DNA of 63,072 nt, counting the filler, from Folioceros fuciformis (lineage: Eukaryota): NCBI GenBank assembly GCA_049999805.1. It is 9 parts of 9 records of this genome, joined end to end, with 100 filler letters (N's around TTAATTAATTAA, not from the genome) between each part and the next. Parts side by side here need not be neighbours in the genome. Positions count along the whole stretch, not along the records: positions 20,087 to 35,149 come from JBNGIO010005720.1; 8 more parts are not named here. One strand, 5' to 3'. The notes beneath the pieces were generated by a model. That model worked only from the letters and a program-made list of their open reading frames with translations. It was not told the DNA's origin and made no database searches. The position numbers and the translations under genes are program-made. Positions within the stretch are counted from its first letter, which is position 1. The number at the start of each line of letters is the position of its first letter. Below, in pieces: positions 5,317-61,476 of this stretch.

Positions 5317-5730
5317 AGGAGCCGCGTCCCCTTAGCATGCCATACGCTAGGTGGAATTGCTGCCAAGAATACTGCCTATATATGAAATTTAATAGTCTTG
5401 AATTTGGTTTCCCATTGTCCATGAGTTGTGTTGGGAAAGGGAAAGCCCGGGAAGCGAATATTCTAGTTTTGTAAGAGCTCCATTCAAAACTATTTGCACA
5501 AATGTTGAGAGTTTGGCTTGCTTTCTGTACCGGTTTCAAGTTACATACTATTTATTTATTTGAGAAAACAAGATGGAAATGCCCATTTGCCTCAAAACAG
5601 GGAGATAAACCATGATAAGAATACTAGGGGNNNNNNNNNNNNNNNNNNNNNNNNNNNNNNNNNNNNNNNNNNNNTTAATTAATTAANNNNNNNNNNNNNN
5701 NNNNNNNNNNNNNNNNNNNNNNNNNNNNNN

Positions 5731-11931: not shown

Positions 11932-12886
11932 CTTAGGAGCTAGCTTGGACCATTTTATGAATTGCTTGGACATTTAACCAAGAGAATCTCCACAAACACA
12001 TTGTTCGCTCCCCCAACTTTAGAGGTAGAAGCCCGACTTTCTAATGCACCTGAGGCAAGTGATTGGCCTTGGTGCATGAACATCTTGAGTTTCTACTGGA
12101 TCGTTGTCATCTAACTATCACTCTCCACACTTCCCCCTACAAGTGTCCTCCCTTTCAAGTTCCCATTTGTGAAAATCACTTGGATAGATGAAGAGCCGGA
12201 TTACAACCGAAATTTGGAATACACCCTTGAGCATATAGACGGTTTATGTGCAATTGGTGGATGAAGGAATAGAAATAAATAATATGAGCATAGAATAAGT
12301 TGACGGTGAAATTGAGGAAGAATGGAGCCTGGAACAGGATGCACCTCCGATGAAACAAGTGAAGACAACTATCAGGCGATCAAGGTAGCCGGGCGCAGGA
12401 CAAGCTGGAAGTCCTACCTGAAGCAAGCCAAGAGTCGGTGATACAATGTACGGCGGCGTACATGGCTGACATGACATCCAGGGTTTTGGCTTTTGCCTAA
12501 CTCGTATCGTCTCGGTTTTTCGCAGAAAACATGGTGCGAAGTTCAGGACGTTTGTTATGTCCCACCGTGGAGGGATTTGGAGTAGGTATGCTGAGGAAAG
12601 ATGTAAGAGCAGCGGATGCTTGGGGAAGAGCAGCTAGTGAGCATAGACTGAGCCCTCGCCGTTGAGGTATGATTTTGCAAAGAATTCGAAGAACAGTGGG
12701 GTCATGGAAAAAAGAAGCTCACCTCAGGAAGATCCACTAGCGCCGTTCAACTGGCCGAATCGCTCGGCGGCGTAGGGGCAAGGGATTCGGGATCTGTTGG
12801 TGAGGACGGGAGTGCCGCCGCTCTGCTCCCTCAGTTCAGCTCAGGTCAACACGTTGGATGTTGAAGGGTACAGCGCTCGAGTCGTT

Positions 12887-13633
12887 ATGGCGAGGGGAGA
12901 ACGCGTGCAGCATTTGGAGGTTTTCCTCGCTCGTCGTGACGGTGTTGACAAAACCTTGAAGATTATCCGATATGTTACTCGGCTTTGGCTGGCGATAGCA
13001 GGGAACGGGGAGAAGGGCGATCTTTCGCGGCGTCTGGAACAGTTTGAAGCAAGGGTCAACCTAAGCCGAAAGGCGTTGCGGCTTGGCAAGTTTGTGCAGA
13101 ACGTTAACGCGCTCGGTTTGATATCTGAAAGCTGCGGCAATAGTCTACGTTTACGAGCCTTGTTTCTCCTGGCACACGCGGGCGAGGGCACTTACTACTT
13201 TCTGGAGCAAGTGCTGTGGCTGGTAGGCGCCTCACCATTCCAAGCTCGTTTAGGCGCTCTTTTCCTGCATTGTGACTCGTCTAATAGCTGGCTGCCTTGC
13301 ACATAGTAGATGAAATCTGGCCTCATATCTACCAAGCATGCCGAACGGATTAGCTTGATAAGCGCTTGCGCGGAGTTGGCGGGGTACGCTGGTAGCGTGC
13401 CATTGAAGATGCTACAATTAAGGGATTTACTGGCTGAGAGCGGAAGGGCGAGTGATCGTCGAAAGCTTATCATGAAGATGTCCTCCGTCGTGCAAGATCT
13501 GCTTGACGGTACACTTGCTCTGAGTTCCATCACTGAAGGTCCACGAAAAATTTTATCGACTCCTGCTATGCTAGCTATGGCCGGTTTGCTGTCGGGTGTG
13601 ATAAGTGCGCACAAGGTTTGGTCAAGTTGTTGA
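12887..13633 (+). CDS. PEX11A: Peroxisomal membrane protein 11A; exons 12887-13222 and 13310-13633, 219 aa
   Basis: HLEVFLARRDGVDKTLKIIRY, SRKALRLGKFVQ, GEGTYYFLEQVLWL|MKSGLI, AELAGYAGSV, C-terminal SAHKVWSSC. Phase-0 GT..AG intron at 13223-13309. Confidence 0.93.
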
Positions 13634-18565: not shown

Positions 18566-18831
18566 TGTCTTCATTGCTTCGAGAACTTGTGTTGTCTTCT
18601 TCAATGCTACCCATATGAACCTCTGGGCTGGGTTATCTTCAATGCTACTTACGTGGTGAACTTGTTAAGCACCATGATGCATCAGTAGAATACGTCCAAC
18701 CAAGGGGGCCAGCCTGCACTTAGAATGTGTGNNNNNNNNNNNNNNNNNNNNNNNNNNNNNNNNNNNNNNNNNNNNTTAATTAATTAANNNNNNNNNNNNN
18801 NNNNNNNNNNNNNNNNNNNNNNNNNNNNNNN

Positions 18832-19351: not shown

Positions 19352-20312
19352 GTTGCCTGGTAGGATCGCAGGTAGCGTGTTGCTGGCTGTACAGCGTCTG
19401 GTAGGATCGCGGGCAGCGTGTTGCCGGTTGTATAGTGTCTGGTAGGATCACAAGGTGTAATGACCAAGGTGTAGGTAGGGGTTTGTCCCTAGCTCTTGAT
19501 TGTAAAGGATGTGTCTTTCTCTCGACCTGTCCACTCTTGTTCCCTGTTTGGACAAGTGCCGTAGGCCGGCCATGTTTCATGGCGTCTGGTAAGGTTGTGG
19601 GGAGGAGATATCCGAGGGGGTGTGGGGGGAGAGTGTGTTCACTTCTTTCTCTTCTTTGGGGTTAGTCTAGTGACTCTTGCCGGGTACGAGGAGTCAATAG
19701 GGAAGTGTAGAAGGTAGTGGTGTCATGGTTAGTTGCTGGTGTTGGTGCTGGAGTGAGAGAGCGAGTGAAGTGAGTGAGGGAAGTCGCAGATCTGAGAGGT
19801 TAGGGTTGTTGTAGTGACTGGAGTGAGTTTGTGGGCACCAAGAGAGGTGCAGCTGACTGCTGGACAACGAGGCTTGTCCTACGCCTAATCGGAGCTGGAG
19901 AGGAGCCCTCGAATCCATCATCGAGTCAATTGAGTCCGACCCTCCATCCACAGCAGCAAGGAACCCCATCGCTCCTTCGTGGGAACNNNNNNNNNNNNNN
20001 NNNNNNNNNNNNNNNNNNNNNNNNNNNNNNTTAATTAATTAANNNNNNNNNNNNNNNNNNNNNNNNNNNNNNNNNNNNNNNNNNNNCAGCTGACCGCCAG
20101 ACAGCGAGGCCTGTCCTACGCCTGATCGGAGCTGGAGGGGAGCCCTCGAATCCATCATCGAGTTGATCAAGTCCGACCCTCCATCCACAGCAGCAAGGAA
20201 CCCCATCGCTCCTTCGTGGGAACGAAACCCAATGTCTCAACGACAGTGGGATAAGTGTGGCCACTAAAGGTGGGACCCGTCGGCAATCAGTGCCCGGGGT
20301 TTTGCCTCCACA
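19352..20312 (+). mobile_element. Family X LTR pieces: two slightly different copies on either side of a gap
   Basis: Matches about 6290-7008; ends GCCTCCACA at 20312, directly abutting Copia-A. Confidence 0.85.
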
Positions 20313-21383
20313 GTTCTCATCCTCAGGCTCATTCTATAAGTGTAGGAAACCTTTCAGCTACTCAGCAAGCAGTCTTATGGCACGCACGCTTGGGTCATGT
20401 CAATCGCACAACTATGATTTCCATGAGCAAGCATGCTGGTTATCGAGAACCCTTACCTTCTTATCTGTAGGATCTGCCCCTCTGTGAGACATGTGCTTTG
20501 GCCAAACAGAAGGAACTTCCTTTTCCCAGCACACCTGCTCACAGATCTACTCAACTGCTCGAATTGGTCAATGCTAATATCTCAGGCCGCCTTCAGGTTT
20601 CTTCACTTGGGGGCATACTACTATTTCACTATCACTGATGATTACAATAGATACACATGGACATTCCCCATCCATAAGAAAAGCGACACCTTTCCTTTAT
20701 TTCAGGATTGGCTAGTCACTGTACAACGACAAACTGGTTGCCTCTTGCAACTGTTTAGGTCTGACAACGGGACAGAATTTGTTACCATTGCCTTCACCAC
20801 TTTCCTGGAATCACATGGCATTATACATCAACTTATTGTCCCAAACACGCAGCAGTAAAATGGCATTGCTGAACGTAAAAACCAGACACTTATGGGAATG
20901 ACAAGAACTATGTTATTATGGTCAAGTTTACCATCCCCATATTGGGCAGAAGCAGTTGTCACGTCCACATATATTCTGAACAGGTTGTTAACCAGTTCTC
21001 TAACCTCCAAGACACCATATAAGCTTTTCTGGAAACGTAAGCCCAACTTACTACATCTTAGGGTATTTGGCTCCAAGGCCTTCGCATATATACCTTCTGA
21101 GAAGCGACGCAAGCTTGACAACAGGTCTCAAAGCCTTATTTTTATTAGCTACAGCGAACATGTAAAAGCTTACAAGCTTATTGACCCTTCTTCATGTCAG
21201 CTTGTCCTAGCACGTAGTGTGACTTTCGTTGAACCACTGCAGCTAGTTACACAGTCAACAATTTATGACACATATTCTGGCTCAAATGTATCACCTGCTA
21301 CTCTGGAGGATGAGGATGATTCTGATGGAATTGTTTCAGTTTACCCTCTTGATGCTGATGGTGATCCAGGTGTCCCTCTTGTC

Positions 21384-21527
21384 CAGCCTGTTGCACCTCC
21401 TTTTGCTCATATGAATGCTGATCCACCAACCCAGCCTGTTGCACCTCCTTTTGCTCATATGAATGCTGATCCACCAGCCCAGCCTGTTGCACCTCCTTTT
21501 GCTCATATGAATGCTGATCCACCAGCC
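21384..21527 (+). repeat. 48-bp in-frame tandem repeat x3 (QPVAPPFAHMNADPPx)
   Basis: Only one unit is present in the sister copy at about 33399-33447. Confidence 0.9.
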
Positions 21528-23593
21528 CAGCCTGATGCCCCTGACGTCCTTGATGCACCTGCTCCACCCTCAGATGATGCAGCACGAGCACTGTTAGATC
21601 TAGATGATTTTGCAATCGTTGATGATCATGAAGACACACTACCGGAGCTTCCACTGCCAGAGGGGAATGCACATGAGTTGGAATTACGTGTAGCAATCGA
21701 CGCTCCTGTGGTAGCTGCCCCCGATCCAGATGTTGGACTTCGACGATCTACTCGCCATCGTCCTCCACCATCTGATTGGTAGGAGCCCCGATATACACCT
21801 ATAGACTTTCGGCAGCACACTGCTCATGTTGTCATAGCTTCCATCCCTATTGTCCCACCTGAGCCTTCCACACTAAAAGAAGCATTCACAGGTCCGGATA
21901 GAGAAAAATGGACGGCCGCTGTTGATGACAAGTATAACAGCCTGATGAAAAATGGGACCTGGCGTCTCGTCCCTCGACTTGCAAACCGCAAACCTATCAC
22001 CTGTAAATGGGTTTTTAAGCACAAATTAAATGCAGCAGGGGAGATTGCTAGGTATAAAGCACGCTTATGTGCTAGAGGATTTACACAAGTTTTTGGGCTG
22101 GACTACCAGGAAACCTTCTCACCTGTGGTCCGTGCTCAGTCAATTCGAGTTATCCTTGCCCTTGCAGCAGAGCACGATTTAGAACTCCAGCAGATGGATG
22201 TCTGCACGGCTTTTCTCCATGGCATCCTGGACGAAGAGTTGTACATGGAGCAGCCAGAAGGCTATGTCGATTCTGCACACCCAGACTATGTATGTTTACT
22301 CATCAAATGCCTCTATGGGCTCAAGCAAAGTGCAGAACGATGGTACAAGCGTTGTGATAAAGCATTGAAGTCCCTTGGCTTTCGCCAATGCACACCAGAC
22401 TCTAATGTACATGTTCTGCAAGATGGAGCCAACTATGTCCTTCTGGCACTGTATGTTGATGACGTTATCCTAGCTTCTAACAGCACTGACCTTCTTACCC
22501 GTGTCAAGGGTCTTCTTAGCCAGACCTTCGAGCTGACAGATAGTGGTGACCTTTGGTTCTGTTTAGGCATCCAATTACTCAGAGTTAGGTCTGAACGGCT
22601 CTTGATCATTCATCAACACAAGTACATAGCAGAAATTTTGCATAAGTTTAACATGCTTCAGGCACATCCAGCAAGTACACCTAAAGCTGTTGGGGCTAAA
22701 CTTACCCGTTATGAATGCCCCGTGATTGATGCTGATAAGGCAGATATGGCTGATGTTCCTTATCGTCATGCAGTAGGTAGCTTGATTTTTGTGAGCAATT
22801 GGACTCGCCCTGACATTCAACACTCGGTTAGTACAGTCTCCCAATTTATGGAGAACCCAGGCCGAGCCCATTGGACTGCTGTCAAGAGGATATTTCGATA
22901 TTTACGTGGAACTCACTTCTATGGCCTTTGTTACAAGCATACTGGACAGTCCCCACTTACCTTGCATGGCTTCATAGACGCCGATTGGGCTTCTGACAGT
23001 GACTCTAGGAAGAGTCTCTCGACCTATGTTTTTCTCCTTGCACAGGCTGCCATTAGCTGGAGCTGCAAGAAGCAAACTAGCATTGCATTATTTGCATTAT
23101 ATTGCATTGCATTATACTGAGGCGGTTTATAAATCCTTGACAAATGCAACTAAGGAAATCAAATGGGCAAGGTCTTTTCTTTCTGATATCGGCCAAGAGC
23201 AGTTAGGTCCCACTCACCGGCAGTGTGATAACCAGTCGGCCATTGCTCTTGTCTCTAACCCTCGGTTCCATGCTCGTACAAAACACATCGAGATACAGCA
23301 CCACTATGTCAGAGATGCTGTTGAGAGGGGAATTACCAAGGTTTTCTATGTTCCCACAGATGATAACACAGCAGACATTCTGAACAAGGCTCTTCCCAAA
23401 GACAAGCATTACAAGCATATGGAAGGCCTCGGGTTGATTGTTTACAAGCCCTACTTTCTCAAAGAGTAACTCACAGATGGGGGGTTTGAGGTCTTTAACC
23501 TCAGATACGTGGAGATGCTAGCATGCGTGTGTATGCCGATAGGGAGGGTTAGCAGCCACTTCATCGAACAGGTAGATGAATCTCAAAGCTGTT

Positions 23594-23893
23594 CTAATCA
23601 CCTGGATGCTGGTGTCTTTTCTCCTCCTCCTGTAGTCTTTTCAACAGACTGAGCAGTCTCTGTGCTTCTTGAAGGGGTCTGAGCAGGCTAGTTTCGTCGC
23701 CTGTATCCTCTGGAGTGTCTTCTCCTCTCGCAGGCTTTGCCCAGCAGAGCTGTATGTTGAAGAGAAATTTCCAGCCTCCAACCCTGATGGCGGCGCCAAC
23801 TATGTGGGTTTCATCCCACTCCTCTTCAGCTGGCTTCTTCTTGGCAGACTGCTCCTTCTGTGTCCTACTTCGCTTGGACCTTTTCGAGGGCAT
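23594..23893 (-). CDS. Antisense accessory ORF of Copia-A, unknown function, 99 aa
   Basis: MPSKRSKR...WDETHIVGAAIRVGGWKFLFNIQLCW...LLRPLQEAQRLLSLLKRLQEEE; aligns with 40394-40738. Confidence 0.65.
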   Translation of the reverse strand: MPSKRSKRSRTQKEQSAKKKPAEEEWDETHIVGAAIRVGGWKFLFNIQLCWAKPARGEDTPEDTGDETSLLRPLQEAQRLLSLLKRLQEEEKRHQHPGD

Positions 23894-24349
23894 TGTGCAC
23901 ACTAGGACTTACAACTTGGATTCCAGCGAAGATGCAAGTGATGAGGACCGCGTATGCAGCTGCAAGATTTGTAGCAATCCCCATGGCTCTCCAGCTCACG
24001 TGTCCTTGTTTGGTTATGATCGCCGCAATTCAAGTTCCCTGCGCCCGCCTCTGCCTTGTGATCGTCGTGTGCCTTCTTCATTGATGACCCCGTCCTTTGT
24101 CAATTACGCCCGGACCTCCCCAAGCTCGTTTTTTGCTTAAGGGAGGGTGTTAGGAATTAAGCCGTACTCGCTTAGGGTTAATTATCGGATTACTTATATT
24201 TAGGTTTTATTATCTAAGGGTCATCTAGTGAAGAGGCACCTAGTGCATATATAGACATACTTTAAACACTCTTTGTAATTATTCTTATCAATTGTCTTAT
24301 GTTCTTTTCTCTCCTGCTCTTCTTTTCTGGTCATGTCCAATAATTATCA

Positions 24350-25638
24350 TGAGTTGGAATCATTCAACGGGTCCATGAGGACCTGGGTCATTACGGGGTA
24401 AAGAGAACTTACAATTTGTTGTTGCCTCACTTCCATTGGAACGGGATGTATGCTCAGCTACGTGATGAAGTGGGTAAGTGTGCTCAGTGTGATCGTGTGA
24501 AAGCCTCGTTCAGCAATCCACACTCACAGTTGCATCCACTGCCCATTATGGGTTTGTTCTTCCAGTGGTCATGTGACTTGGCAAGGGAATTCCCTCAAAC
24601 ACCTAGAGGGCATGTATACATCATTGTGATGGTGGTTCATTTCTCCAAGTGGTTGGAATTGGCAGCCCTTCCAAACAAGACATCCTGTAGTACGTCACAA
24701 CCGTTTCTACACAATGTAGTCAGTAGGTTTGGAAGCAGTGCAGAATGTTTGACTGACCAAGGAGCAGAATTCAAGGGGGAATTCCAGGATTTGCTAGATG
24801 CTGCCTTGATAGATCACTAGCGCACTAGCGGGGATCACCCACAAGCGGACGGACTCGTGGAGAGAATGGTCTAGACCATCACGCAAGCTTTGCGAAAGCT
24901 ATGTCTCACTAAGCCCAAACAGAGTGGGACATGCAGCTACCCTACATCGCCATGGGATATCGGATGAGCTGTCATGCAACTTTGGCAAACTTTTTGCCTT
25001 ACTTTTTGCTATTTGGGCAGGAGCCAGTACCTCCCGTAGCCATTGAGAAGCAGATGCAGGAAGGCTTGGACTTGGACAGTCCAGCAATGTGGGCGCGGGC
25101 CATAGGAGAACAGGCAGCACTGTTTAGAAGGGTCATGCCTATGGCCATGGCCAACTTGCAAATTGCGCAACACCGTGACACTCTCCGATATGCTTATACA
25201 CGAAGTGGCAACTTCCGACCTAAGGTGCGTAAATTTCAGTTCGGCGGCTATGTGTATTTGTAGTGCCAAACGCAGGATACGCTGGAGCCGAGCACCAGTA
25301 GGCATGTTTTGCAAGTAAAGGAAGTTTGGAGCAACAGCGTGTTGGTCTTGGAGGGGGCAGACGGGCGCACAATTACAAATCACATGAAGAATTGCGCACC
25401 ATGCCACTTACCCAATTTAGGTCCAACGATCATAACAGCAAAATGGGTTCCCTCGGCGGACTACCCCTGTCAGATTTTTCAAAGGATCGATGATCCACAA
25501 CTAATGTTGTTGTGTGACCACTGTAATGGTGGTTTTCATTTGTTCTGCTTACAGCCATCGCTGACTAAAGTGCCCGACAGTGTGTGGTTTTGCCCTCGAT
25601 GCAGTGGACAAGCAGAGCTGGGACACTCTTCTACCTAA
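24350..25638 (+). mobile_element. Ty3/gypsy integrase (HHCC, DDE core) with C-terminal PHD finger, decayed
   Basis: HEDLGH...CAQC, WSCDLA, TDQGAEF, PQADGLVER; PHD CQIF...LLCDHCNGGFHLFCL...WFCPRC at 25468-25602, in frame with the integrase C-terminal region across a TAG. Confidence 0.9.
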
Positions 25639-25755
25639 GGGGTGAGTTGCTTTAGGTAAGCTCATTGACTCCAACTCATGCAGCTGTGGTCTCCATGGCA
25701 CCCAACTGGGGGGGGGAATTAGGATAAATCCATTTTTCTCCCTTTTCACTACTCT

Positions 25756-26055
25756 TGTGAAGACACACCTAGCCAGTGGGCAACATCGGAGGACAAGATG
25801 CTAGGAAGATGAGATNNNNNNNNNNGAGGTGCTGCTTGTCGGTGTGATCGAAAGGGAGATGACTTACTTCAGCTCAGGTTTTTGTGCTGCTTGATCGCTG
25901 GGTGTGTGTGTTGGGTAGTCTAGGGATTAGCCATTGGTGTTCGCTGTGACTACCGTGGTGGACACTAGGGCCTGAATGAGGGGTGACTTGCATGACGTGT
26001 GTGTTGTGTGCCGTCTACGAGACCCTTCAAACCTTAATTGAATTTACTTCTCACA
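25756..26055 (+). mobile_element. Putative LTR of the DNMT/PHD gypsy element (contains a 10-N gap)
   Basis: TGTGAAGA...TTCTCACA termini; G-run at about 25708-25716 upstream; no TSD; no clear PBS. Confidence 0.4.
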
Positions 26056-27661
26056 ATTGAGTTTGTGCCTTGGCTTATTGCTAAGGTCTCAGGATAGGAA
26101 CATCAGCTGATACAAGCAGCTGACAGGTGTTGTTGATCACGCTGTGAAGACTTGTGCTTAAAGTAATACATGTGTCTAAGGTACACTCTTGGACAAGCTA
26201 AGGACACCCTAAGGACAGCAGCAAGGCCAAGCCAGCCACAACTACAGCAACTACGATGGGTCCACTATGCAATAGGTGCGCTAGCACGAAGCACCTAGCA
26301 CCAGCGTGTAGGTGTCTAGTGGAGTCTTTGCAATGCTCACATTGTCACAAGTTTGGACATGTGGTAGCAGTGTGCTTCCAAAAGCACCCAGAGCGGCGCC
26401 AGCAGAGGACTGCAATCGGCATCGGCACGCCCACTACCACAAGTGAAGGAAGCTCGGATACATTTGCTAAGTCAGGAACTTCATCGGTCACCAAGAGTAA
26501 AGCTTGATGTGACAAGGTCAAGCAGAAGTCAGCGGCTCAAGCGGATAAGATGAGTGCTTTGGAGACGGCAATGGCCGCTCTCACTACCCAAGTAAGCACC
26601 ATTGTTGCAAGTTTAGCTGTCACTAAGCTTGCCAGTACCGTGGAGTTAGAACCAGGTGGAACCTCAGACTCTGAAGGGGAGGACTATGGTTGAGCCTGGG
26701 AGACATGCGTTGCTGATAGGTTTTGCATCTGGAAAAATGATTGCTGGAGGGCAGCACCAAGGAGGGTTGAAGACTGAGAGTTTACCACAATCGTGGGTAG
26801 GCCAGGTGCCGAGCCCTGCAACAATGTCAACATGTCTTCATGGAGTTAGAGCGGTCATACCTCAGTTCTTCCAGCAGCTACCACCTGAAGTAGCGATGTC
26901 GTTTGAGGGGCGCTAATCATTTACTGGATGAGGAAGCATTGGGAGGTGGAACTCGGCAGAAGCGTCCAGTTGCAGGAACGCGAGCCGCATCAAGTTTACG
27001 TCATCTGCATCCAGGTGTCCCTGAGTTCACGGGCAAGGATCTTATGGCTTGGATAAAGTCAACACCACTCTTTAGTCTGGCTGAACTTGGTACAACGAAT
27101 CTCACCTCTGAGCCATGTTGTTGTCTAATGACCCTCGAGTGTTGGTGGAACCCAGCCTACCCAGTGGATGCGCAGAAGCTATGACAAGCAATCTTGGGGA
27201 GCTGGAGTGTTCTTAGGATACGGGAGTAGATGCCCTAGCATGAGGAGAGGTGGTACAGGTTGCACATTTGGCAAAAGTGGTGCTGGGTTTGCCTGTTGTA
27301 CAACCCACGAATCGTGTACGTGTCAGAGTCAGCAATGTCTTGGTGGACAACAGGGACGGACACGTACTTGTCAACGACTTGGCTCCTAGGGCTGTTTTGC
27401 TTGATACTGGAGCTCAACTAGTGATCTTGGGCAAGACCTTGGCAGCTATGTTAAGGTTGACTGGAGAAGCCTTGAAGCCATCCCCGGGGGACATACGGAC
27501 GGCTTCCGGTGCTGTGGAGCCTGTGTGTGGGGAAACGGTGCAACCTATGCGAATTACCTTGAAGGCAAGCACTGATGACGAGATGATGTTGCCAATGCGT
27601 TGTTTAGTGACCATGGCGACTAACTACGACATCTTGCTAGGGCAAGAGTTTCTGTTCCCAC

Positions 27662-27921
27662 TAAAGATTAGGATCGAGGAGGCAAGGAGATCGAGATCTG
27701 GCAAGGCGAGAGTGAAAGTAGAAGAGATATTTTTATTTCAGACCATGTGGTCTCTTATAGTACGTTAACGGTTACGTCCTGTGAATGTAGAGGCACGACG
27801 TTTGAGTTTGGGACGCCAACCCTTGTGTGTGACGTTGCAAATCCACTTAGTATTTAATTAGGCCTATTTACTATAAATGCTGGATATATAATATGAATAA
27901 ACCTATTTTATCCTACCAATA
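27662..27921. mobile_element. 260-bp insertion (probable solo LTR) at the end of the gypsy protease
   Basis: Flanked by a CCCAC duplication (27657-27661 and 27922-27926); removing it restores FLFPPDVTIDNW. Confidence 0.8.
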
Positions 27922-28426
27922 CCCACCCGATGTCACGATTGACAATTGGGTGGAACAAGCTACTTATTGTCTAGACTAGCGTCAGGGTGGTCAACGTACT
28001 GCTCATATTCCTCTGGATTTGCATGGAGTCACACAAGCTACAGAGGTTTCTACTGTGGAAACATAGGCATGCATGGCCACTCTGGTGGATCAGAAACTTA
28101 TGTAGGAGCTAGAATTAGCTCTTGATGACAAGGGAGATGAGTGGTTGCAAGAATGTGAGAGTCCAAAAGAGTTTCCACTATAGCAGTATTTGCAAGAGGC
28201 TGAGGGTTATCACAGTAACACTTATCGCACTTCCATTTTTGCGGTTGATGTCACTCAGGCAGGGGTATTGAGACAAGGACCTATGCATCAGGTGCAGGAG
28301 CAAGTGGCTCACGCCATGAAAATCTTGCAGGAGCCTTTTATGGGCACGTCCTTATTGACCAATGGACCACCCCCTTGTATGTCAACCGTCAACACTGCGA
28401 TTGTATCTTGGACCCCACCTGTAGCA

Positions 28427-28798
28427 GGTATTACACTCATGGAGCTTTTCAGAGGACTCTGCACAGAGCTTGAAGCAGCACTGCGATGTGGTCTACAGGT
28501 GCAGCAATACATTTACTGTGACGTTTGCCCGGCAGTCAGGCATATGGCGGAGCATCGGGTTCGTATGTTACATGACATGTACCCAGAGCAACTCAGTTTG
28601 CATGCTTGTCAAAGCATGTTTCAGGCTCTACCACAGATTGTCACTTACGTTCAACGTAGCCATGTGCAGCACTTGGGACCTGTAGATCTTATCGTTGCTG
28701 GCTGGGAGTGTCAGGGTCTCTCACGGGCAGGTCATGGAGCAGGGCTGTCAAATCCTAGATCAGGACTTTTTTGAGACCTAGCACAAATCCTAGTGTGG
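28427..28798 (+). pseudogene. Retrotransposon-encoded C5-cytosine DNA methyltransferase, N-terminal half (motifs I-V)
   Basis: GITLMELFRGLCTELEA (motif I, FxG), YIYCD (II), VDLIVAGWECQGLSRAG (IV, catalytic Cys), GLSNPRSGLF (V). Confidence 0.85.
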
Positions 28799-29082
28799 TA
28801 CGGCAGAAGCGCAACAGGAAGCCTTTAGCCTACTGAAAGGCAAGCTGATGGACATGCCTATCATGGCTAGGCCAAATTTCAGTCAACCATGCTGGCTACA
28901 CACTGATTGGAGCAACCTAGGAGTGGGGATGGTGCTGGCTCAACAGGATGATGAGGGCCATAAGAGAGTCATCGCCTATGCCTCAAGAAGCAATAATCGG
29001 GCAGAAGCAAACTACTCGAGTTATGAGGATGAGCTGTTGGCTGCAGTGTGGGCCGTGTGTCACTTTAGAACCTACTTGTACA

Positions 29083-29385
29083 TTAGGACGTTCATGAAGG
29101 ATTGCTACAAGGAGCTACATGGTGAAGGAGGAGAAGAGGAGGCAAGGAGGAGAGGAGAAAGAGAGGTCACACTCTCACAATGAGTCTCTATAGCAAGGGA
29201 GCTCAAGGGGGTATTTATACCCTCTAGAAGAGCTCCCTAGGAAGCTTCACTAGAAGCGCACAGGAAGCTACACAAGAAGCTTCCTACAGATTAGCTTAAG
29301 CTAATCTAACTAATGGTACTTAACTAGACACTAATCTTAGACTAAACACATTAGTGTAAGCACATTGGGCTTTAATAACCCTACA
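29083..29385. mobile_element. About 300-bp LTR-like insertion in the gypsy RNase H; ends approximate
   Basis: Interrupts HFRTYLY / FTL..DHQP; no clean TSD. Confidence 0.6.
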
Positions 29386-29864
29386 GTTCACACTGTTACA
29401 GATCATCAACCACCTTGTTGGCTAATGATTAACACTAAGTTGAATGGTAAGTTAGCCTGGGGGGCAATGATCTTACATGATTATAGCTTTGAGGTGGTGC
29501 ATCGACCAGGGATGTGACATCAAAATGCTGATATCTTGTCAAGGAATCCTAATCCGAGCTCTGTTGATGAGACTGAAGCGCGACGAGATGAGAAGGATGA
29601 GGCTCTGAGCATGGTAGCGTTAGTATGCATGCTGAGTGTGTTGTCGTGCTATTTGGTTAGCAATACTCAGTCACAGAGAGACATTTGGGAGGATGAGTCA
29701 ATTTTGCAGTATGTAAAAACTGGTCAGCTGAAGTCCAAGTTGGATGTGTCACAGCATGAGAGGATTCAGTAGAGGGCTGCACGCTATGAATGGAGAGATG
29801 GCCACCTGCTGCGGAAGTTGGCGAGTGGAGCAAAAAGGTTAGTGCCACCGCCACAGGATTGAGT

Positions 29865-32800
29865 TGTTAGGAATTAAGCCTTACTCGCTTAGGGTTAATA
29901 ATCGGATTACTTATATTTAGGTTTTATTATCTAAGGGTCATCTAGTGAAGAGGCACCTAGTGCATATATAGACATACTTTAAACACTCTTTGTAATTATT
30001 CTTATCAATTGTCTTATGTTCTTTTCTCTCCTGCTCTTCTTTTCTGGTCATGTTCAATAATTATCATGGTATCAGAGCCATGAGCATATACAATTACAAA
30101 CTTTGCTATCGTACACACTTCCGCTGCCTCGCAGGATGAGAAGCTAAGAATATAATTTCTATGAGCTAATATTTGGACAAGTAAGAAGAGCGGCTGGGAA
30201 TTCAACAGAATTCAGCACTATCTCTGGATGCTAGCTAAATCTTGTTGAAGACCCTGCTCCCCTTCCTGCAAGTCAGAGTTAGCCTAATTTCTATGGATTT
30301 TGCTACTAATGTAGAATGATTATCCAGCTGTCCAACCTGTACAGAATATTGCTGTAGTAAGCACTCTAAAAATGCCAAGGTGCAAAAATAAGCAGGCCAC
30401 AAGGCCATCATTTTCTGGTCAATTCAGACCTGATGGAGTGCCTGCAGGATATACAGCGAATGGCAATTGTCAGCAACAATCACCATCACAGCCAATTCAA
30501 CTACAAGACTGTGCACTAGTGACATTGACAGATCTTACCTGAAGAAATGATTCTGAGCGTGAGATGTATAGACCACTTCAAGATTTCTCCCGGCCAGATT
30601 CCGGATGTTCGACTAGCAGCTCGAGTTTCCAACTGTGGTGAAGAGTCACAGGCTGTTGAGGGGAATGGCACACGTGGATGTGCTTGTTCTGCTTCTGTCC
30701 AGGTCTCGTGACATTTCATACCCTACCTGTCAACCATTTTTAGGGTTAGTTCATTTAAACAATGTTTTTTGAACTCATATCCCTAACGGAATACCGTTTC
30801 GATAAGGGGGGCGGGTTTTGTGTCTTACTTACTTGTTAAGCACTTTAGCACCTCTTCACCTTAGTTGGTGCCTCCCCCTATCACATCCGCCTGTTTCCCC
30901 TTGCTGCTCAAAACATCACAGACTCTCTAGCAATGTGGACGCGCCATCCTCCCCCTCCTCCACCAGTGCCTGGATCTTTTACACATGTCTTCATGTCAAA
31001 GTTAAAAGAAAAAGACAGGTTTACTGGACAAAAATATGAGCTATGGAAGGTGAGGATGAAGTCCACTCTGCTTGCTAGAAATGTCAGGGGATATGCTGAT
31101 GGTTCTATTCCAGAACCAGCATCTACAGCAACCAAAGGAGAAAAGGATCATTGGGCACATGCTAACAGCGTATGCATGGCCCTCCTTATTGCTGGTCTTT
31201 CTGAAAACCTCCTCCCCGACGTAGAATTCCTCACCAAGGCAAGTCAAATGTGGCAACAGCTTGCTGATACTTATCAAGTGCGCAATGTCATGACGTTATG
31301 TGCACTTTGCTTAGAATTCTATGGACTGAAACTGAAAGAAGGGGATAAGGTACTTACACATTGCAACAAGTTTCGTCACTTGAGAGCTCAACTTGCTGCT
31401 GTAGGCACCAAAATGGATGAGATTGATGCAGTGGCTCAATTGCTTACGAGCCTCCCTCCCAGCTACCAGAATTTTGTATCTTCACATAATGTTCCCATTA
31501 GAACAGCAAATGTTGCTGTTGCTGCTGGACAGGCCTCTCCACTCACCCTTGACGGGGTGATAGGCGCGTTATACCAGGAAGAGCAAAGCAGGCTCATGTC
31601 AGGGTCTGGATCCAAGTCCAAAGCTGACAGTGTTTTCTGCTTTTTGTGGTAAACCATTCCAGAGGGGCAGGCCAAGACATGTGATAGGTACACATCCTCC
31701 TCGCCATGAGACTCGCCATGAGGCTGGTCCGTCAACTATTAAGCGTCAGGGCACCTGTAACTGGTGTGGTATCCCTGGACACTGGGTGAAGGAATGCCGT
31801 AAGAAGAGAGCTGATGAACCTCAGAAGGCTCCCATAACTGCATCAGCTGCCACTGTTAGAGAAAAACTCTCCAGTGTAGGTTCTTCAAAGCCAGTGGTAA
31901 AAATACTGACTGTTTGTCTTACCTCATCGACACATGACACATCTTCTTGGTTCCTGGATTGTGGAGCCACCACATCACACATTTGTCATGATGAGACCCA
32001 ATTCACCAGTCTGCAGCTCACATCAAACGTGGAGCGTGTTTACCTGGGTGATGAACACATTGACACGAGTTTACAGATCCTTGGTCAAGGTTGCTGTAAA
32101 TTCAGACTGAATGACAAGATATTCCTTACATTATCTGATGTCCTCTATGTGCCTCGTATGGCCAAAAACTTGTTATCTTTGAGCAAGTTGATGAAGACCC
32201 AATGTTTTCTTCTCCAAGTTTCAAATACCTCCTGTTGCTTCTATCGGAACTCTGCTCCGTCTATATGTGTGTTTCGAGCACATCTTGAACATGACTTGTA
32301 TCGCCTGGACATCAAATGCATCCTCAGTTCTCATCCTCAGGCTCATTCTACAAGTGTAGGAAACCCTTCAGCTACTCAGCAAGAAGTCTTATGGCATGCA
32401 CGCTTGGGTCATGTCAATCACACAACTATGATTTCCGTGAGCAAGCATGCTGGTTATCGAGAACCCTTACCTTCTTGTCTGCAGGATCTACCCCTCTGTG
32501 AGACATGTGCTTTGGCCAAACAGAAGGAACTTCCTTTTCCTAGCACACCTGCTCACAGATCTACTCAACTGCTTGAATTGGTCCATGCTAATATCTCAGG
32601 CCACCTTCAGGTTTCTTCACTTGGGGGGGCAGACTACTATTTCACTATCACTGATGATTACAGTAGATACACATGGACATTCCCCCTGCATAAGAAAAGT
32701 GACACCTTTCCTTTATTTCAAGATTGGCTAGTCCCTGTACAACGACAAATTGGTTGCCTCTTGAAGCTGTTCAGGTCTGACAACGGGACAGAATTTGTTA

Positions 32801-33530
32801 ACAATGCTTTCACCACTTTCCTGGAATCACATGGCATTATACATCAGCTTATTGTCCCATACACGCAGCAGCAAAATGGCATTGCTGAACGTAAAAACCA
32901 GACACTTATGGGAATCAGAAGAGCTATGCTATTATGGTCAAGTTTACCATCCCCATATTGGGCAGAAGTAGTTGTCACGTCCACATATATTCTGAACAGG
33001 TTGTTAACCAGTTCTCTAACCTCCAAGACACCATATAAGCTTTTCTGGAAACGTAAGCCCAACTTACTACATCTTAGGGTATTTGGCTCCAAGGCCTTCG
33101 CATATATACCTTCTGAGAAGCGACGCAAGCTTGACAACAGGTCTCAAAGCCTTATTTTTATTGGCTACAGCGAACATGTAAAAGCTTACAAGCTTATTGA
33201 CCCTTCTTCATGTCAGCCTGTCCTAGCACGTAGTGTGACTTTCGTTGAACCATTGCAGCCAGTTACACAGTCAGCAATTTATGACACATATTCTAGCTCA
33301 AATGTATCACCTGCTACTCTAGACGATGAGGATAATTCTGATGGAATTGTTTCAGTTTACCCTCTTGATGCTGATGGTGATCCAAGTGTCCCTCTTGTCC
33401 AGCCTGTTGCACCTCCTTTTGCTCATATGAATGCTGATCCACCAGCCCAGCCTGATGCCCCTGACATCCTTGATGCACCTGCTCCACCCTTAGATGATGC
33501 AGCACGAGCACTGTTAGATCTAGATGATTT
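29865..33530 (+). mobile_element. Copia-A 5' part: 5' LTR (29865-30066), PBS-Met (30067-30079), long leader, gag, protease, integrase
   Basis: 202-bp LTR nearly identical to 24148-24349 and preceded by TGAGT; CNWCGIPGHWVKEC; FLDCGATTSH; RSDNGTEF; QQNGIAERKN. Confidence 0.95.
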
Positions 33531-35149
33531 TGTAAGAAAAATAAGGAATGCTAGAAACGTGTCAAGGCATCTTGACATCGTGTGTGCAATAGCCAACAAG
33601 CAATAAGGAATAACAAAATAATGAATTGGATAAACGTCAATGAACATAGAGTTGTTTATATAGTTAAACCTAATATGCCTAGGTTAACGTTAATATACTT
33701 AACGTATATTTTTCATACTCCCACATAACCTAGGCAGTATTTAAGAACTGAATAAAACGTGCATCGCGTGAAACAGTGAGCATTATGCTTTTGAAAACGG
33801 AACGGGAAGCTCAAACAACGGGGTCTTCCACTCGCAGAGAGCAGTGCCAACACCATGTCTCAACTACTTGCCGTCGTCGCGCTCGTAATAGCTGTGTTCT
33901 GTATCATCATCCAGTGGCAAGAATCAATGATGACGAGAAGCGAAGCGTGCTACCAGCCTGTAGAAGATGAGGAGCCGAGCGCCAGAGAAGGAGGCAGAAG
34001 GAAGAAGTCTGCGCTTAGGGCAGAGCGGCGCAAGCCCAGGGAATGGAAACCTTTCAACCTGCAGCACTATTTGAGGAGCTACGACTGGGAAGTGGAGCTG
34101 GCGGTAAGTGTTACTATGAGGAAGAGGTGGTTGACCTAGGAGACATTCCTGCAGTGGACCCTCTCAGGGGCATTAGAGTGCGATGGCATGAAGCGGTCAA
34201 CACTCCGCTGCCCGCTGAAGATGGGGAAGAGGAAAAGGTTCCTGCTGAAGTTGTAAAGCTGTCTTAGGAGATGTTTAGGCTTTCACAAAGAGACAAAGGG
34301 AAAAGGACGCAAGGTTAGGTAAGGACTGTTGGCTTCATCCATGCTCCTTTTCTTGTGTGCCGAAAGCAGGAGGGTAATGACTGACTTGTAGATTGTGTTT
34401 GTGTGTGTCGCACGACACAAGTAGATAGGAAGTGTAGGAAAGTCTGTCAGCTGAGGCTGCAATCTGTAAAACCTAAATTATAAGGGGGTTTTTGAGATCA
34501 GAGGACATAGGCCCTCACCCCTCCCACAGACTCCAGGTCAGTTGTTACCTTCCAAGTAGGTGGCTGAAGTCTTTAAGTCCAAGCGATTCCATGTGCAATC
34601 TGTGCTTCAGCTTAGGCAGTGCTTTTGTCAAGATATCGGCTGTGTTCTCAGCAGTGGGAACATATGCCAGTTGGATAACTCCTCTTGCAACTGTGTCTCT
34701 GATATAGTGGTGCTTGATCTCAAAGTGTTTCGTCCTTGCATGAAATCTTGGATTGGTGACCAAGGCAATTGCGGAAATATTGTCACAGCGGAGGATTGTG
34801 GGTTCCAGCTGCTCAACATGAAGATCCTTAAGATAAGCACACTCCCACGCAGCCTCCTTTGCAGAATCAGTAAGAGAGATGTATTCTGCTTCAGTGGAAG
34901 ACAACGCAATTGATTGCTGTTTCTTGCAGGACCAGTTCACTGCAGCACCAGCTAATAGAAAGCAGTATGTGGAAAGACTCTTCCTAGAGTCAGAATCTGA
35001 AGCCCAATCAGTGTCCGTGTATGCAGATAATTGAAGACCTGAAGGTGACCCAACTTGATAGAAGAGTCCAATTGTCATGGTACCCTTGAGATAGCGGTAA
35101 ATCCGCTTCACAGCTGCCCAATGCACACGTCCAGGCTTCTCCATGAACT
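33531..35149 (-). mobile_element. Copia-C 3' part: RT end and RNase H (34545-35149), 3' region, 3' LTR (33531-33715)
   Basis: YTDTDWASD, SSTEAEY, RCDNISAI, TKHFEIKHHY, ADILTKAL; minus-strand LTR TGAAAA...CTTACA preceded by GTGGGAGTA. Confidence 0.9.
33855..34267 (+). pseudogene. Antisense ORF(s) in the Copia-C 3' region with an N-terminal hydrophobic helix
   Basis: MSQLLAVVALVIAVFCIIIQW...RRKK...EWKPF...LRSYDWEVELAVSVTM, plus an overlapping acidic frame ending at 34267. Confidence 0.45.
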
Positions 35150-35249
35150 NNNNNNNNNNNNNNNNNNNNNNNNNNNNNNNNNNNNNNNNNNNNTTAATTA
35201 ATTAANNNNNNNNNNNNNNNNNNNNNNNNNNNNNNNNNNNNNNNNNNNN

Positions 35250-37089: not shown

Positions 37090-37263
37090 GGTTAAAATTT
37101 ATTGCTAAAGCGACAAATAAGTCGTAGTCAACAAATAATTCTTTGGGGCCAACGCAATTCTGGTAGACTCATCAGCTTATGTGTGGAATGAGCGTGCCTC
37201 TCTGTGGGAGGAGGCTTGCTTTGCTGAGTTGCTCTTGGAGCGTCCTTCGGTCGGGACGTGAAG

Positions 37264-38761
37264 ATGGAGCTGCTGGCGAGCGCGCTGTGGATGCCAGTGC
37301 TTCTTGCAGCTTTGGGATTGATTATAACCGTGGCATCTGCCCCGCTACAGGCTGATTTCTGGAACTGCAGTCCCTTGCCGCTGTGGAATAGTTCCGTGAC
37401 TGGCGATCTCAGGCCCAACTGCTGCTCGCTGGAGGCGCTGATGCGGAAGCCCGAGCCGCTGTACAAGACATGGCAGCAATACTTAGATCAGAGCGGTCTT
37501 CGGGATAGGCCAATGCGAGTGCGTCCAGCTGCGCATCTCATCGCAGACAACGAAACATACCTGCAGCAGCTGGACCTGGCATACAGGCTGCACAAGGCGC
37601 TTCCAGACGCCGACCCAAGGTCACAGATTTCGCAGATGAACTTCCACTGCCAGTATGGCGCTCCTGGCGTGTTGCACCAGGCTGGCAATGAGTATTTCAA
37701 CTACCTCGTCCACAACAATTGGTATTTCTTCCCTTTCCACCGCTGGTAAGCTCTAAGTGGGTGTATTTGCAGCTCAAGTCATGCGGTCTGGCATTGCTTT
37801 TAATATTGCAGCTGGGGATGCGGATTCCGTCTCACCCTGGCAACCTGGCCTCGGCTGAAAACTAGGTTCACCTTCTTCTTCGAGAGGATGCTGGCCAAGT
37901 TGGTGGGCGATGAATCCTTCGTTCTGCCTTTCTGGAACTGGGACAATCAGAGCGCCGACTTCAAGCACCTTCCCAACACTGTTCCCCACTATTACCGCAA
38001 CCCTGACAAGTACCCAGGTCTGTATCACAAGTATCGCGATCCTCGTCACCGACCTGAAGCGGAGCCCGCAATCATCAACCTCATTCGCGCATCCGTCGCC
38101 TCAGGGTTTTCTCCCACGACGGCGCAGGAGGTAGCTCAGGCTCGGGTACTCAACAAGGCGCACCTGCGAAGCTTGATCGTCGACCGCACCGCCAACGGCA
38201 ACATAGAAAACTTCCTCTCAGACCCGATACGATTGGGAGAGACCACTGACCGCGACCGTGAGAACTGGAGACTTGGATTCGAAGCGCAAGCGCATTTGGC
38301 TGTGCATGACTGGATGGGAGACCCGGCTTATTCATTCGCGGATATGGGGTTGGTTTACCATGCTGTTCGAGACCCGATATTCTTTGCCCACCATGCCAAC
38401 GTTGACAGGATATGGAAAGTCTGGACGGTGGGTTGCAAGTAATGAAAGCAAGGATGGACGACAATCATCAATCAATCAAATTTCGACCCTCCCATGTGAG
38501 ACTGACACTGTTGACATGTGCATTGTTCAGGGACTCGAGGGCAGGCGCAACTATGACGACCCCGACTTCCTGGACGCTACCTTCTACTTCTACGATGAGA
38601 ATGCGGAGATTGTGAGAGTCACCGTTGCTGAGTGTCTCAATTCTGACCTCCTGAAATACACCGAACAAGACGTGGAGAACGAGTGGGTGACGTATGAGGC
38701 ACCAGCCGATTCAGCCCTTCTCCTCGGCGACCCATCTCCAGCACGTTCCGAAGCATGGTGA
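37264..38761 (+). CDS. PPO: Polyphenol oxidase (type-3 copper); exons 37264-37745, 37866-38427, 38531-38761; 424 aa
   Basis: Signal-peptide-like N-terminus; RVRPAAH; DPRS..QMNFHCQYG; VHNNWYFFPFHRW; LPFWNWD; EAQAHLAVH; RDPIFFAHHANVDRIW; DPDFLDATFYFYDEN; two GT-AG introns preserve the frame. Confidence 0.92.
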
Positions 38762-48902: not shown

Positions 48903-49678
48903 NNNNNNNNNNNNNNNNNNNNNNNNNNNNNNNNNNNNNNNNNNNNTTAATTAATTAANNNNNNNNNNNNNNNNNNNNNNNNNNNNNNNNNNNNNNNNNN
49001 NNAGAATTACAAAAACAACACAATACAAGTGAAGAGGGAGTTAGACTGCCTATACTAAGTGGGTTCATCCCTTCTTTTATGGACCTATGGGTGGCACTCT
49101 CATTTTGTGCCCAATATGGGATAAATGACCCCAACCAAACCCTACAATACTTCTTTTGCCCAACATAGCAAAGTCTAATAAGCTATATATATTTTTATAT
49201 ATTTATTATAACCTTAATCACTCTTACCACTAATTAGTACAAACTCAATAAGCTGGATTAGCACTAATTAATATCAACATTAATCATGCTTAACAACCCT
49301 AACATCGTTTATACCTTAGTTACTTAACTGGGGTTAGTTATTAAACTCAAGAGACACTTTGGTTTTGTATATAAGTACTCTTTCTTAAATAAATTACACT
49401 CTTCTTGTATTATGTCTTTTCTTAGAGCAATTCATGATATAAAAGAAACATGGTATCAGAGCATTACGATGCTTGAGTCTTCAGCTAAATTAATGATGAT
49501 TATTTGCATAGTATCTAGGTTGGGAAATTATTTTTCCAACGCTTGATCTATAAATCATCATTATAGCTAGATGAATTCTAGCTACCTTCTCCGTGAAATA
49601 TGACTAGAAGAAATGGTAGACGAGGTGATAGAAATCTAACTCCATCGTCAGTTTCTTCTAGATTATCAAGGGATCAAT

Positions 49679-58024: not shown

Positions 58025-58124
58025 NNNNNNNNNNNNNNNNNNNNNNNNNNNNNNNNNNNNNNNNNNNNTTAATTAATTAANNNNNNNNNNNNNNNNNNNN
58101 NNNNNNNNNNNNNNNNNNNNNNNN

Positions 58125-61194: not shown

Positions 61195-61377
61195 TGTGGG
61201 CAAGCGGATGTGGTATCCCTACCAGGCACCCGCTCACATGTATCGTGGTGTCAGGATATATAATGCATTTAGGCATAAATATAATATGTTAATTAAACCC
61301 AGCTGAAACGATGCGGCCGGCGGAACGGCGTGGATGGTAGACCGTTTCGCGTGACAAGTAGGCAGTTATTTAATAAN
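61195..61377 (+). mobile_element. Family Y LTR start (61195-61248) interrupted by another TG-starting LTR-like sequence
   Basis: TGTGGGCAAGCGG...ATCGTGG as at 52133, then TGTCAGG... up to the gap. Confidence 0.75.
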
Positions 61378-61476
61378 NNNNNNNNNNNNNNNNNNNNNNN
61401 NNNNNNNNNNNNNNNNNNNNTTAATTAATTAANNNNNNNNNNNNNNNNNNNNNNNNNNNNNNNNNNNNNNNNNNNN

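Follow-up and report, generated by a model that had tools for sequence, protein, structure and literature searches.

Introduction

Retrotransposons that encode a cytosine methyltransferase are rare and counter-intuitive, since methylation normally silences retrotransposons. To our knowledge, the cases published so far come from Symbiodinium and Klebsormidium only. The closest described system is KnitGypsy-Dnmt3, a Gypsy element of Klebsormidium nitens with a Dnmt3-type domain in Pol and a DIRS-like repeat layout (de Mendoza et al. 2018, PMC5890265). In that paper, the domain is placed with Dnmt3 and is under purifying selection, and self-methylation by the Gypsy-encoded Dnmt3 is proposed. When tested in yeast, the K. 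nitens domain produced no methylation, a result that the authors regard as inconclusive (PMC5890265). Two Symbiodinium retrotransposons, SymbioDIRS-Dnmt3 and SymbioLINE-Dnmt, likewise encode a C5 methyltransferase, and the DIRS-type enzyme methylates CG de novo in yeast (PMC5890265). A further paper mentions DNMT3 members in retrotransposons of streptophytes and dinoflagellates (PMC12344493). Here, we analyze a stretch of 63,072 nucleotides of Folioceros fuciformis DNA (the window, by which we mean the whole stretch). Positions 24352-29864 of the window very probably hold a dead, rearranged remnant of a Ty3/gypsy lineage with a DNMT3-like methyltransferase (DNMT in domain orders) between the protease (PR) and the reverse transcriptase (RT) of Pol. 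The Symbiodinium elements resemble the window locus as retrotransposons encoding a C5 methyltransferase, but they belong to the DIRS and LINE classes and are independent acquisitions according to the authors of PMC5890265.

Identity of the methyltransferase stretch

All coordinates are positions of the whole window. Open reading frames (ORFs) are called from stop to stop, and 26400-30000 is also translated in three frames. The methyltransferase ORF (28184-28774, 195 residues) reads ...ITLMELFRGLCTELEAALRCGLQVQQYIYCD...VDLIVAGWECQGLSRAG...PRSGLF and ends in ...ITLMELFRGLCTELEAALRCGLQVQQYIYCD...VDLIVAGWECQGLSRAGHGAGLSNPRSGLF, followed by TGA. It contains motifs I (ELFRGLC), II (YCD), IV (AGWECQ), and V (RSGLF), as an earlier note on this DNA had proposed. 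ELFRGLC and YCD align with motif I of DNMT3A in a PDB match and with the relatives described below; the motif I that binds S-adenosyl methionine (SAM) and the acidic residue of motif II are present. The last G of motif I (FxGxG) is C in the window and likewise in relatives P0004, P0018, P0019, and P0027. In motif IV, the catalytic Cys is kept and Pro is replaced by Glu. Motifs VI (ENV), VIII (RxR), IX, and X (GN) are deleted in the window copy.

In a phmmer search of the PDB, the ORF matches DNMT3A (E=7e-4) via motifs I and IV, and 25 of the 26 listed sequences are DNMT3A, DNMT3B, or DNMT3C. Relative P0009 matches DNMT3B (7.8e-7) and DNMT3A (1.2e-6) in the PDB; 26 of its 27 matches are DNMT3 and one is M.HhaI. 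The AlphaFold model of the window ORF, made with 52 aligned family fragments, has a pLDDT of 85-98 over residues 80-170. When the model is compared with the PDB by Foldseek, the rows to rank 50 are DNMT3A/3B complexes or plant DRM, with the exception of two rows of an rRNA methyltransferase; the best row, 6pa7_K, has E=6.6e-3 over 122 columns. Twenty-nine of 30 feature matches in an Atlas search are PF00145 clusters.

Searched against 5.8 billion proteins (longer ones only), the ORF retrieves four proteins among 649 candidates. The best of these is P0004, a 1928-aa protein of Closterium sp. NIES-53 that carries PF00145 (E=1.3e-22, 49% identity). At cut-offs of E<=0.001, E<=1e-10, and E<=1e-30, HMMER against 1.84 billion representative proteins gives 572, 283, and four matches, respectively. 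The nearest relatives of the stretch are metagenome or unnamed records (Logan, ENA, JGI), and the nearest named ones are algal. On sequence and predicted fold, the stretch reads as the N-terminal half of a DNMT3-like C5-methyltransferase, a resemblance beyond chance.

Layout of the gypsy remnant

The features of the locus are collected in Table 1. The integrase (INT) is split by a Copia element, and its reading resumes from 29859 to 24356 (tblastn). Once this permutation is undone, the Ty3/gypsy order of PR, RNase H (RH), and INT with the H2C2 zinc domain is present, and RT is deleted.

Table 1 Features of the permuted gypsy locus and its nested Copia pieces, in order of position.
Feature	Position	Strand	Evidence
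3' part of a Copia of the same family: INT-RT-RNase H, then 204-bp long terminal repeat (LTR; 24148-24351)	20303..24351	+	TGAGT after LTR (24352-24356)
Gypsy integrase from H2C2 zinc domain onward: catalytic core, C-terminal region, terminal PHD finger	24353..25638	+	Pfam, tblastn
Non-coding stretch from integrase-PHD end to gag, with 10-N gap 25816-25825	25639..26201	+	read directly
gag remnant with two CCHC-like zinc knuckles	26202..26507	+	ORF translation; weak tblastn match to P0004 300-384, E=0.2
Aspartic protease (LLDTGAQ)	27244..27661	+	Pfam gag-asp_proteas; tblastn P0009 450-570 = 27292-27657
260-bp insertion	27662..27921	.	duplication CCCAC at 27657-27661 and 27922-27926
Linker from protease to methyltransferase, in methyltransferase frame, four TAG stops	27927..28426	+	contiguous P0007 alignment (747-911, then 912-1082)
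Predicted N-terminal half of DNMT3-like C5 cytosine methyltransferase, motifs I-V	28427..28795	+	profile, structure, and alignment evidence
Deletion junction, about 560 polyprotein residues gone, frame shifted	28793..28805	+	tblastn P0004: 743 = 28792, 1306 = 28806
RT-RNase H connection and first part of RNase H	28800..29094	+	Pfam RT_RNaseH_2 E=1.5e-31, RT_RNaseH E=9.6e-23
291-bp insertion, TG...CA ends	29095..29385	.	duplication GTTCA at 29090-29094 and 29386-29390
RNase H end and integrase N-terminal region, up to Copia site	29395..29864	+	tblastn P0004 1403-1547 = 29395-29853; P0026 1075-1236 = 29398-29856
5' part of nested Copia: 204-bp LTR (29865-30068), then gag-PR-INT	29865..33532	+	TGAGT before LTR (29860-29864)

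The protease claimed by the earlier note lies in ORF 27244-27768, which reads AVLLDTGAQ and matches gag-asp_proteas (E=1.2e-7) and Asp_protease_2 (E=3.8e-7) of Pfam. The flanked insertion downstream of it, also claimed there, is exactly 260 bp long, has CCCAC on both sides, and is missing in one host contig. When this 265-bp step (insertion plus duplication) is removed, the protease and methyltransferase frames match. The single frame from protease to methyltransferase is thus as the earlier note had it, interrupted in the linker by TAG stops at 27977, 28064, 28103, and 28181; an in-frame TGA follows at 28772, near the end of the methyltransferase stretch. Protease, linker, and methyltransferase align contiguously to P0007 and P0005 (tblastn), and with RNase H and integrase identified as well, the gypsy polyprotein with a fused C5-methyltransferase holds as originally described.

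The methyltransferase stretch ends at the junction. In the tblastn alignment, residues 623-743 of P0004 correspond to 28430-28792 and residues 1306-1400 to 28806-29093. Residues 744-1305 have no counterpart in the window, indicating the loss of both the remainder of the methyltransferase (motifs VI-X) and the entire RT, in agreement with the earlier note. From 28800, a different frame reads TAEAQQEAFSLLK..., which is RT_RNaseH_2; the jump to the RT-RNase H connection had been put at about 28795. Downstream, the 291-bp insertion and a 1-bp deletion after it together break RNase H. No second methyltransferase stretch is present elsewhere in the window.

The C-terminal part of the integrase matches Integrase_H2C2 (E=1.5e-12) and rve (E=1.6e-9) of Pfam at 24353-24820, and a PHD finger at about 25468-25602 ends it (Pfam PHD E=1.2e-10, ORF 25264-25638). 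Residues 1552-1731 of P0004 align to 24356-24895 and residues 2224-2466 of P0019 to 24883-25602 (tblastn). This part is damaged by in-frame stops and one frameshift near 24908-24912. The gypsy terminal repeat and the gag capsid part would be expected within 25639-26201; a repeat search finds no second occurrence of this stretch elsewhere within the window. The repeat pairs of 1.3 kb and 204 bp in the window are those of Copia, not gypsy LTRs. At their ends, the two short insertions and the Copia LTR resemble one another only weakly.

The intact element would have had the order of its relatives, gag(CCHC)-PR-DNMT-RT-RNaseH-INT, to which the window copy adds a PHD finger downstream of the integrase. 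Methyltransferase motifs VI-X and all of RT were lost in an internal deletion of about 1.7 kb. Further damage comprises the four TAG stops and one TGA, the insertion of the 260- and 291-bp elements (each with a 5-bp duplication) and of Copia (TGAGT), and a tandem duplication of the locus or its permutation in assembly. In its present state, the window copy has no capacity to encode a methyltransferase or a reverse transcriptase.

Copia insertion and permuted order

The 3' half of Copia and the C-terminal part of the gypsy integrase stand upstream of gag, and the 5' half of Copia stands downstream of the N-terminal part of the integrase. A 1.3-kb segment, which is integrase coding sequence and not LTR, is common to the two Copia pieces at 95.5% identity (3' piece versus 32317-33532). 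The arrangement repeats with a period of about 12,014 bp. One Copia piece has three copies of a 48-bp unit that encodes PPFAHMNADPP(A/T)QPVA, and the other has a single copy (21383-21615 versus 33399-33535).

The cause is either a tandem duplication of an about 12-kb unit after the Copia insertion or the scaffolding of two diverged copies across 25816-25825. The second explanation, an assembly artefact in which two haplotypes or copies are joined in tandem across the 10-N gap, is a serious contender that we rate somewhat short of even. The gap lies exactly between the two blocks, and the Copia pieces share 1.3 kb at high identity. TGAGT follows the LTR that ends at 24351 and precedes the LTR that starts at 29865, indicating that both ends come from one insertion event. 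However, the 4.5% divergence and the unequal number of 48-bp repeats exceed assembly error, and unequal crossing-over between terminal repeats yields the same picture. None of the contigs listed decides between duplication and scaffolding.

The best named matches of the Copia ORF are 33-36% identical and come from the fern Adiantum, the liverwort Riccia, and angiosperms (named range 29-36%); the top three matches are 41-54% identical. None of the 120 matches listed is from Closterium, Klebsormidium, or Chara.

Relatives and their domain orders

A search with the methyltransferase region of P0004 finds 25 proteins among 5879 candidates, including several Closterium strains, K. nitens KFL_009030040 (P0026), two proteins of Haematococcus lacustris, and JGI, ENA, and EukProt records. 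The relatives' alignment has AGWECQ or AGWPCQ, ENV, RxR, and GNAMD in unrearranged motif order. In Pfam terms, P0004 comprises zf-CCHC (323-339), DNA_methylase (689-761), RVT_1 (1091-1241), RNase H (1304-1432), and INT (1547-1713). P0007 comprises zf-CCHC, PR (787-878), DNA_methylase (969-1266), RVT_1 (1415-1569), and RNase H. P0026 has the same domain order as the Closterium polyproteins.

We sorted 75 family proteins of at least 900 aa by BLAST with domain probes. The methyltransferase follows RNase H and/or precedes the integrase in 54 of them, most commonly as RT-RH-DNMT-INT-PHD (28 proteins). It follows the protease and/or precedes RT in 17, some of which are gene models fused to Copia parts, and stands alone in the remaining four. 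The order of the window is PR-DNMT...RH-INT-PHD. Its PHD finger is common to the RT-RH-DNMT-INT-PHD type and is unlisted for the Closterium proteins.

Two observations concern relatives other than the window copy. In the environmental proteins P0217 and P0306, the C5 domain is followed by a Dam-type N6-adenine methyltransferase domain (E=6.5e-12); each protein thus combines the two kinds of methylase. Five proteins of the RT-RH-DNMT-INT-PHD type (P0015, P0016, P0019, P0023, and P0027) run 300-400 residues past the PHD finger; by eye, this tail has a glycine-rich stretch resembling a putative SAM-binding motif.

Comparison with known systems

Like the window locus, KnitGypsy-Dnmt3 has a Dnmt3-like domain in Gypsy Pol between protease and RT. 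The two are 49% identical in RNase H and 46-49% in integrase, and their integrases group at a support of 97 in the Shimodaira-Hasegawa-like approximate likelihood-ratio test (SH-aLRT). They differ in that K. nitens has PCQ and the window ECQ, and in that the window copy is dead. The K. nitens record ends before the position of the PHD finger of the window, so the PHD finger is not comparable. Judged by its sequence, the window copy belongs to the same lineage as KnitGypsy-Dnmt3 and adds a degenerate member to an already known kind, Gypsy-Dnmt3.

The polyproteins of Closterium sp. NIES-53, NIES-54, and NIES-68 (P0004, P0006, P0008-P0011) are the closest named relatives of the window. They have the order gag-PR-DNMT-RT-RH-INT, with AGWECQ, ENV, RxR, and GNAMD, are 48% identical to it in the methyltransferase part, and are its sister in the integrase tree (support 80). 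Unlike the window, they have no PHD finger listed, and identity is 30-51% over integrase, RNase H, and methyltransferase. The RT-RH-DNMT-INT-PHD type (H. lacustris QJQ45_013313, which is P0025, and many metagenome proteins) shares with the window the methyltransferase family, mostly AGWECQ, and the PHD finger after the integrase. Its methyltransferase, however, is placed between RNase H and integrase, and it falls on the opposite side of both trees.

Host DNMT3 and DRM give the best sequence and fold matches to the window family in the PDB, and the motif order of the relatives is unrearranged as in DNMT3. In contrast to the host proteins, the family has no PWWP or ADD domain, is embedded in a Pol polyprotein, and mostly has ECQ in motif IV.

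A full-text literature search, outside of which most subscription journals lie, finds no description of the Closterium polyproteins. The same search yields PMC5890265 only, both for KnitGypsy-Dnmt3 and for a land-plant case of a DNMT3 retrotransposon. For Zygnematophyceae and DNMT3 retrotransposons, the sole match concerns land-plant chromatin by its title and abstract, and for Haematococcus the only match is an unrelated review.

Phylogenetic placement

The integrase tree (48 rows, 353 columns, quick IQ-TREE run without outgroup) unites the window, K. nitens, and four Closterium rows at SH-aLRT 97, with the window sister to Closterium. Of its rows, five are named as type A, and the other 42 have the second-type label as a default. 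In the tree of the N-terminal half of the methyltransferase (170 rows, 124 columns, FastTree without outgroup), the window is within a 60-row set with support 95. All 13 PR-DNMT-type rows fall in this set, and the 44 RH-DNMT-INT-type rows all fall outside it. The two trees place the window alike, indicating that the domain travelled with the element.

Catalytic motif of the family

The Pro-Cys of motif IV is near-universal in C5-methyltransferases. In the family, motif IV is recognisable in 145 of 179 proteins, by a pattern that admits a few false contexts (TPS, QVG, KKS). Seventy-seven of the 145 have ECQ and 44 have PCQ; ECQ is therefore the commonest state in the family and not a peculiarity of the window copy.

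With Pro-Cys turned into Glu-Cys in so many members, the family domain could be a pseudo-enzyme that only binds DNA or SAM, and the yeast result for the K. nitens domain, inconclusive though it is to its authors (PMC5890265), would fit. We consider this unlikely. The Cys of motif IV is retained in 133 of the 145 proteins, and among the 105 proteins with enough downstream sequence, EN followed by V, T, A, S, or L is present in 90 and RxR in 86. An active enzyme would be expected to keep its catalytic motifs in this way across more than 500 clusters.

In the intact relatives, the domain would be made within Pol and keeps the catalytic Cys, ENV, and RxR. These elements most likely methylate cytosines de novo, in their own cDNA or in DNA surrounding the integration site, as PMC5890265 proposes. 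The PHD finger probably links the integrase to a histone-tail state.

Other copies in host sequencing data

Contigs from two DNA runs of one organism (word shares 0.59 and 0.41) were placed on 25826-29864 at an identity of at least 80%; 1247 and 1309 contig pieces fit, respectively. Depth is 6-9 for contigs identical to the window and sums to about 60-250 over the element. In one contig, 27656 is followed directly by 27922, a skip of 265 bases, and the 260-bp insertion is thus missing. A contig of 1188 bases (depth 66.5) joins 29094 to 29394 with CACT between, restoring FTLVTD. Its first 234 letters, upstream of 28802, do not fit the window, as a copy without the deletion would show.

At least four contigs span 28422-28506 and read G in place of the window's A; in host paralog contigs, this difference occurs at six places (28426-28506). 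The linker stops, all of them TAG, and these G-to-A places fit decay by transitions, as expected of methylated DNA. Over the 291-bp insertion, the summed contig depth is 1.2e4-6.4e4, versus about 60-250 beside it; this insertion belongs to one of the most abundant short repeats of the genome.

The sequences of the relatives support the PR-DNMT-RT order and the methyltransferase itself as features of the family. That a single copy captured a fragment of a host DNMT3 gene, the one-off event against which the earlier note had set its reading, is highly improbable: the fragment is indeed half a domain and adjoins the deletion junction, but a complete domain stands at the same place in full-length relatives, the linker between protease and methyltransferase also aligns to relatives, the methyltransferase and integrase trees agree, and at least four other host contigs carry the methyltransferase stretch.

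Run X3 of the same sample has 220 C>T versus 61 G>A differences over 25826-29864, and all 16 of the C>T places listed are in CHH context. The run resembles a cytosine-conversion library, in which case the element may be methylated at its CG and CHG sites. Run X4, by our guess an RNA run, matches on the high-copy 291-bp insertion only.

Interpretation

Several results weigh against reading the locus as a remnant of a methyltransferase-carrying gypsy lineage. In the profile check, the window ORF is under the PF00145 gathering score (E=0.019, 14.8 bits versus a cut-off of 22), whereas relatives with the full domain pass it with 54.7, 50.2, 32.3, and 31.4 bits. In the structure search of the PDB, nearly all top rows are DNMT3A, DNMT3B, or DRM, but the model of the window ORF has no Foldseek match at E<=0.001. 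The capsid part of gag is not found in the window by tblastn, even at E<1, and no LTR pair or other terminal repeat surrounds the gypsy part in the window, where the 10-N gap may hide one. Both trees are quick ones on few columns without an outgroup, and the second-type labels of the integrase tree are by default. None of the contigs listed bridges the deletion junction, and therefore they do not decide whether the deletion is private to the window copy. In the yeast test of the K. nitens domain, no methylation resulted, an outcome that its authors treat as inconclusive (PMC5890265).

We nevertheless hold the remnant to be, with high confidence, that of a lineage with a DNMT3-like methyltransferase in Pol. 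As a relic, the copy has no function of its own; what makes it useful is that it points to a family of putative methyltransferases. The window adds another streptophyte host to this family, which is wider than published and includes Closterium, Haematococcus, and hundreds of environmental clusters. The family has two domain orders, often a PHD finger, and mostly Glu-Cys at the catalytic loop.

For the land-plant host suggested in the earlier note, we put the odds at about even. A further proposal is a land-plant host, probably without seeds, in which the PR-DNMT-RT-RH-INT-PHD lineage survives in many copies, some with a complete methyltransferase and RT. We put this forward tentatively, as rather doubtful. 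If true, it would be the first retroelement-encoded cytosine methyltransferase in embryophytes, and the lineage would have passed from streptophyte algae onto land alongside the host DNMT3/DRM system.

Other features of the window

Rfam and tRNA scans of the window find nothing. An identical N pattern (44 N, 12 bases, 44 N) occurs at eight places. Those at 1395-1494, 18732-18831, 35150-35249, 48903-49002, and 61377-61476 are inside retrotransposon ORFs, and those at 5631-5730, 19987-20086, and 58025-58124 are in no ORF listed. The eight patterns look like masking more than assembly gaps. A PEX11 fragment is at 12776-13306.

A polyphenol oxidase (PPO) gene is present at 37228-38761 (Tyrosinase E=9.8e-23, PPO1_DWL E=2.4e-17), with a signal-peptide-like start and a coding sequence spread over three or more frames or exons. 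In the PDB, it best matches the PPOs of apple, walnut, sweet potato, and grape over the full length, and its Atlas matches are of mixed taxa. Among the algae surveyed in a 2026 letter, PPO genes are reported from Chara braunii only (PMC13242956). The plant-type PPO and the relatives of the Copia element point to a streptophyte host, possibly a land plant.

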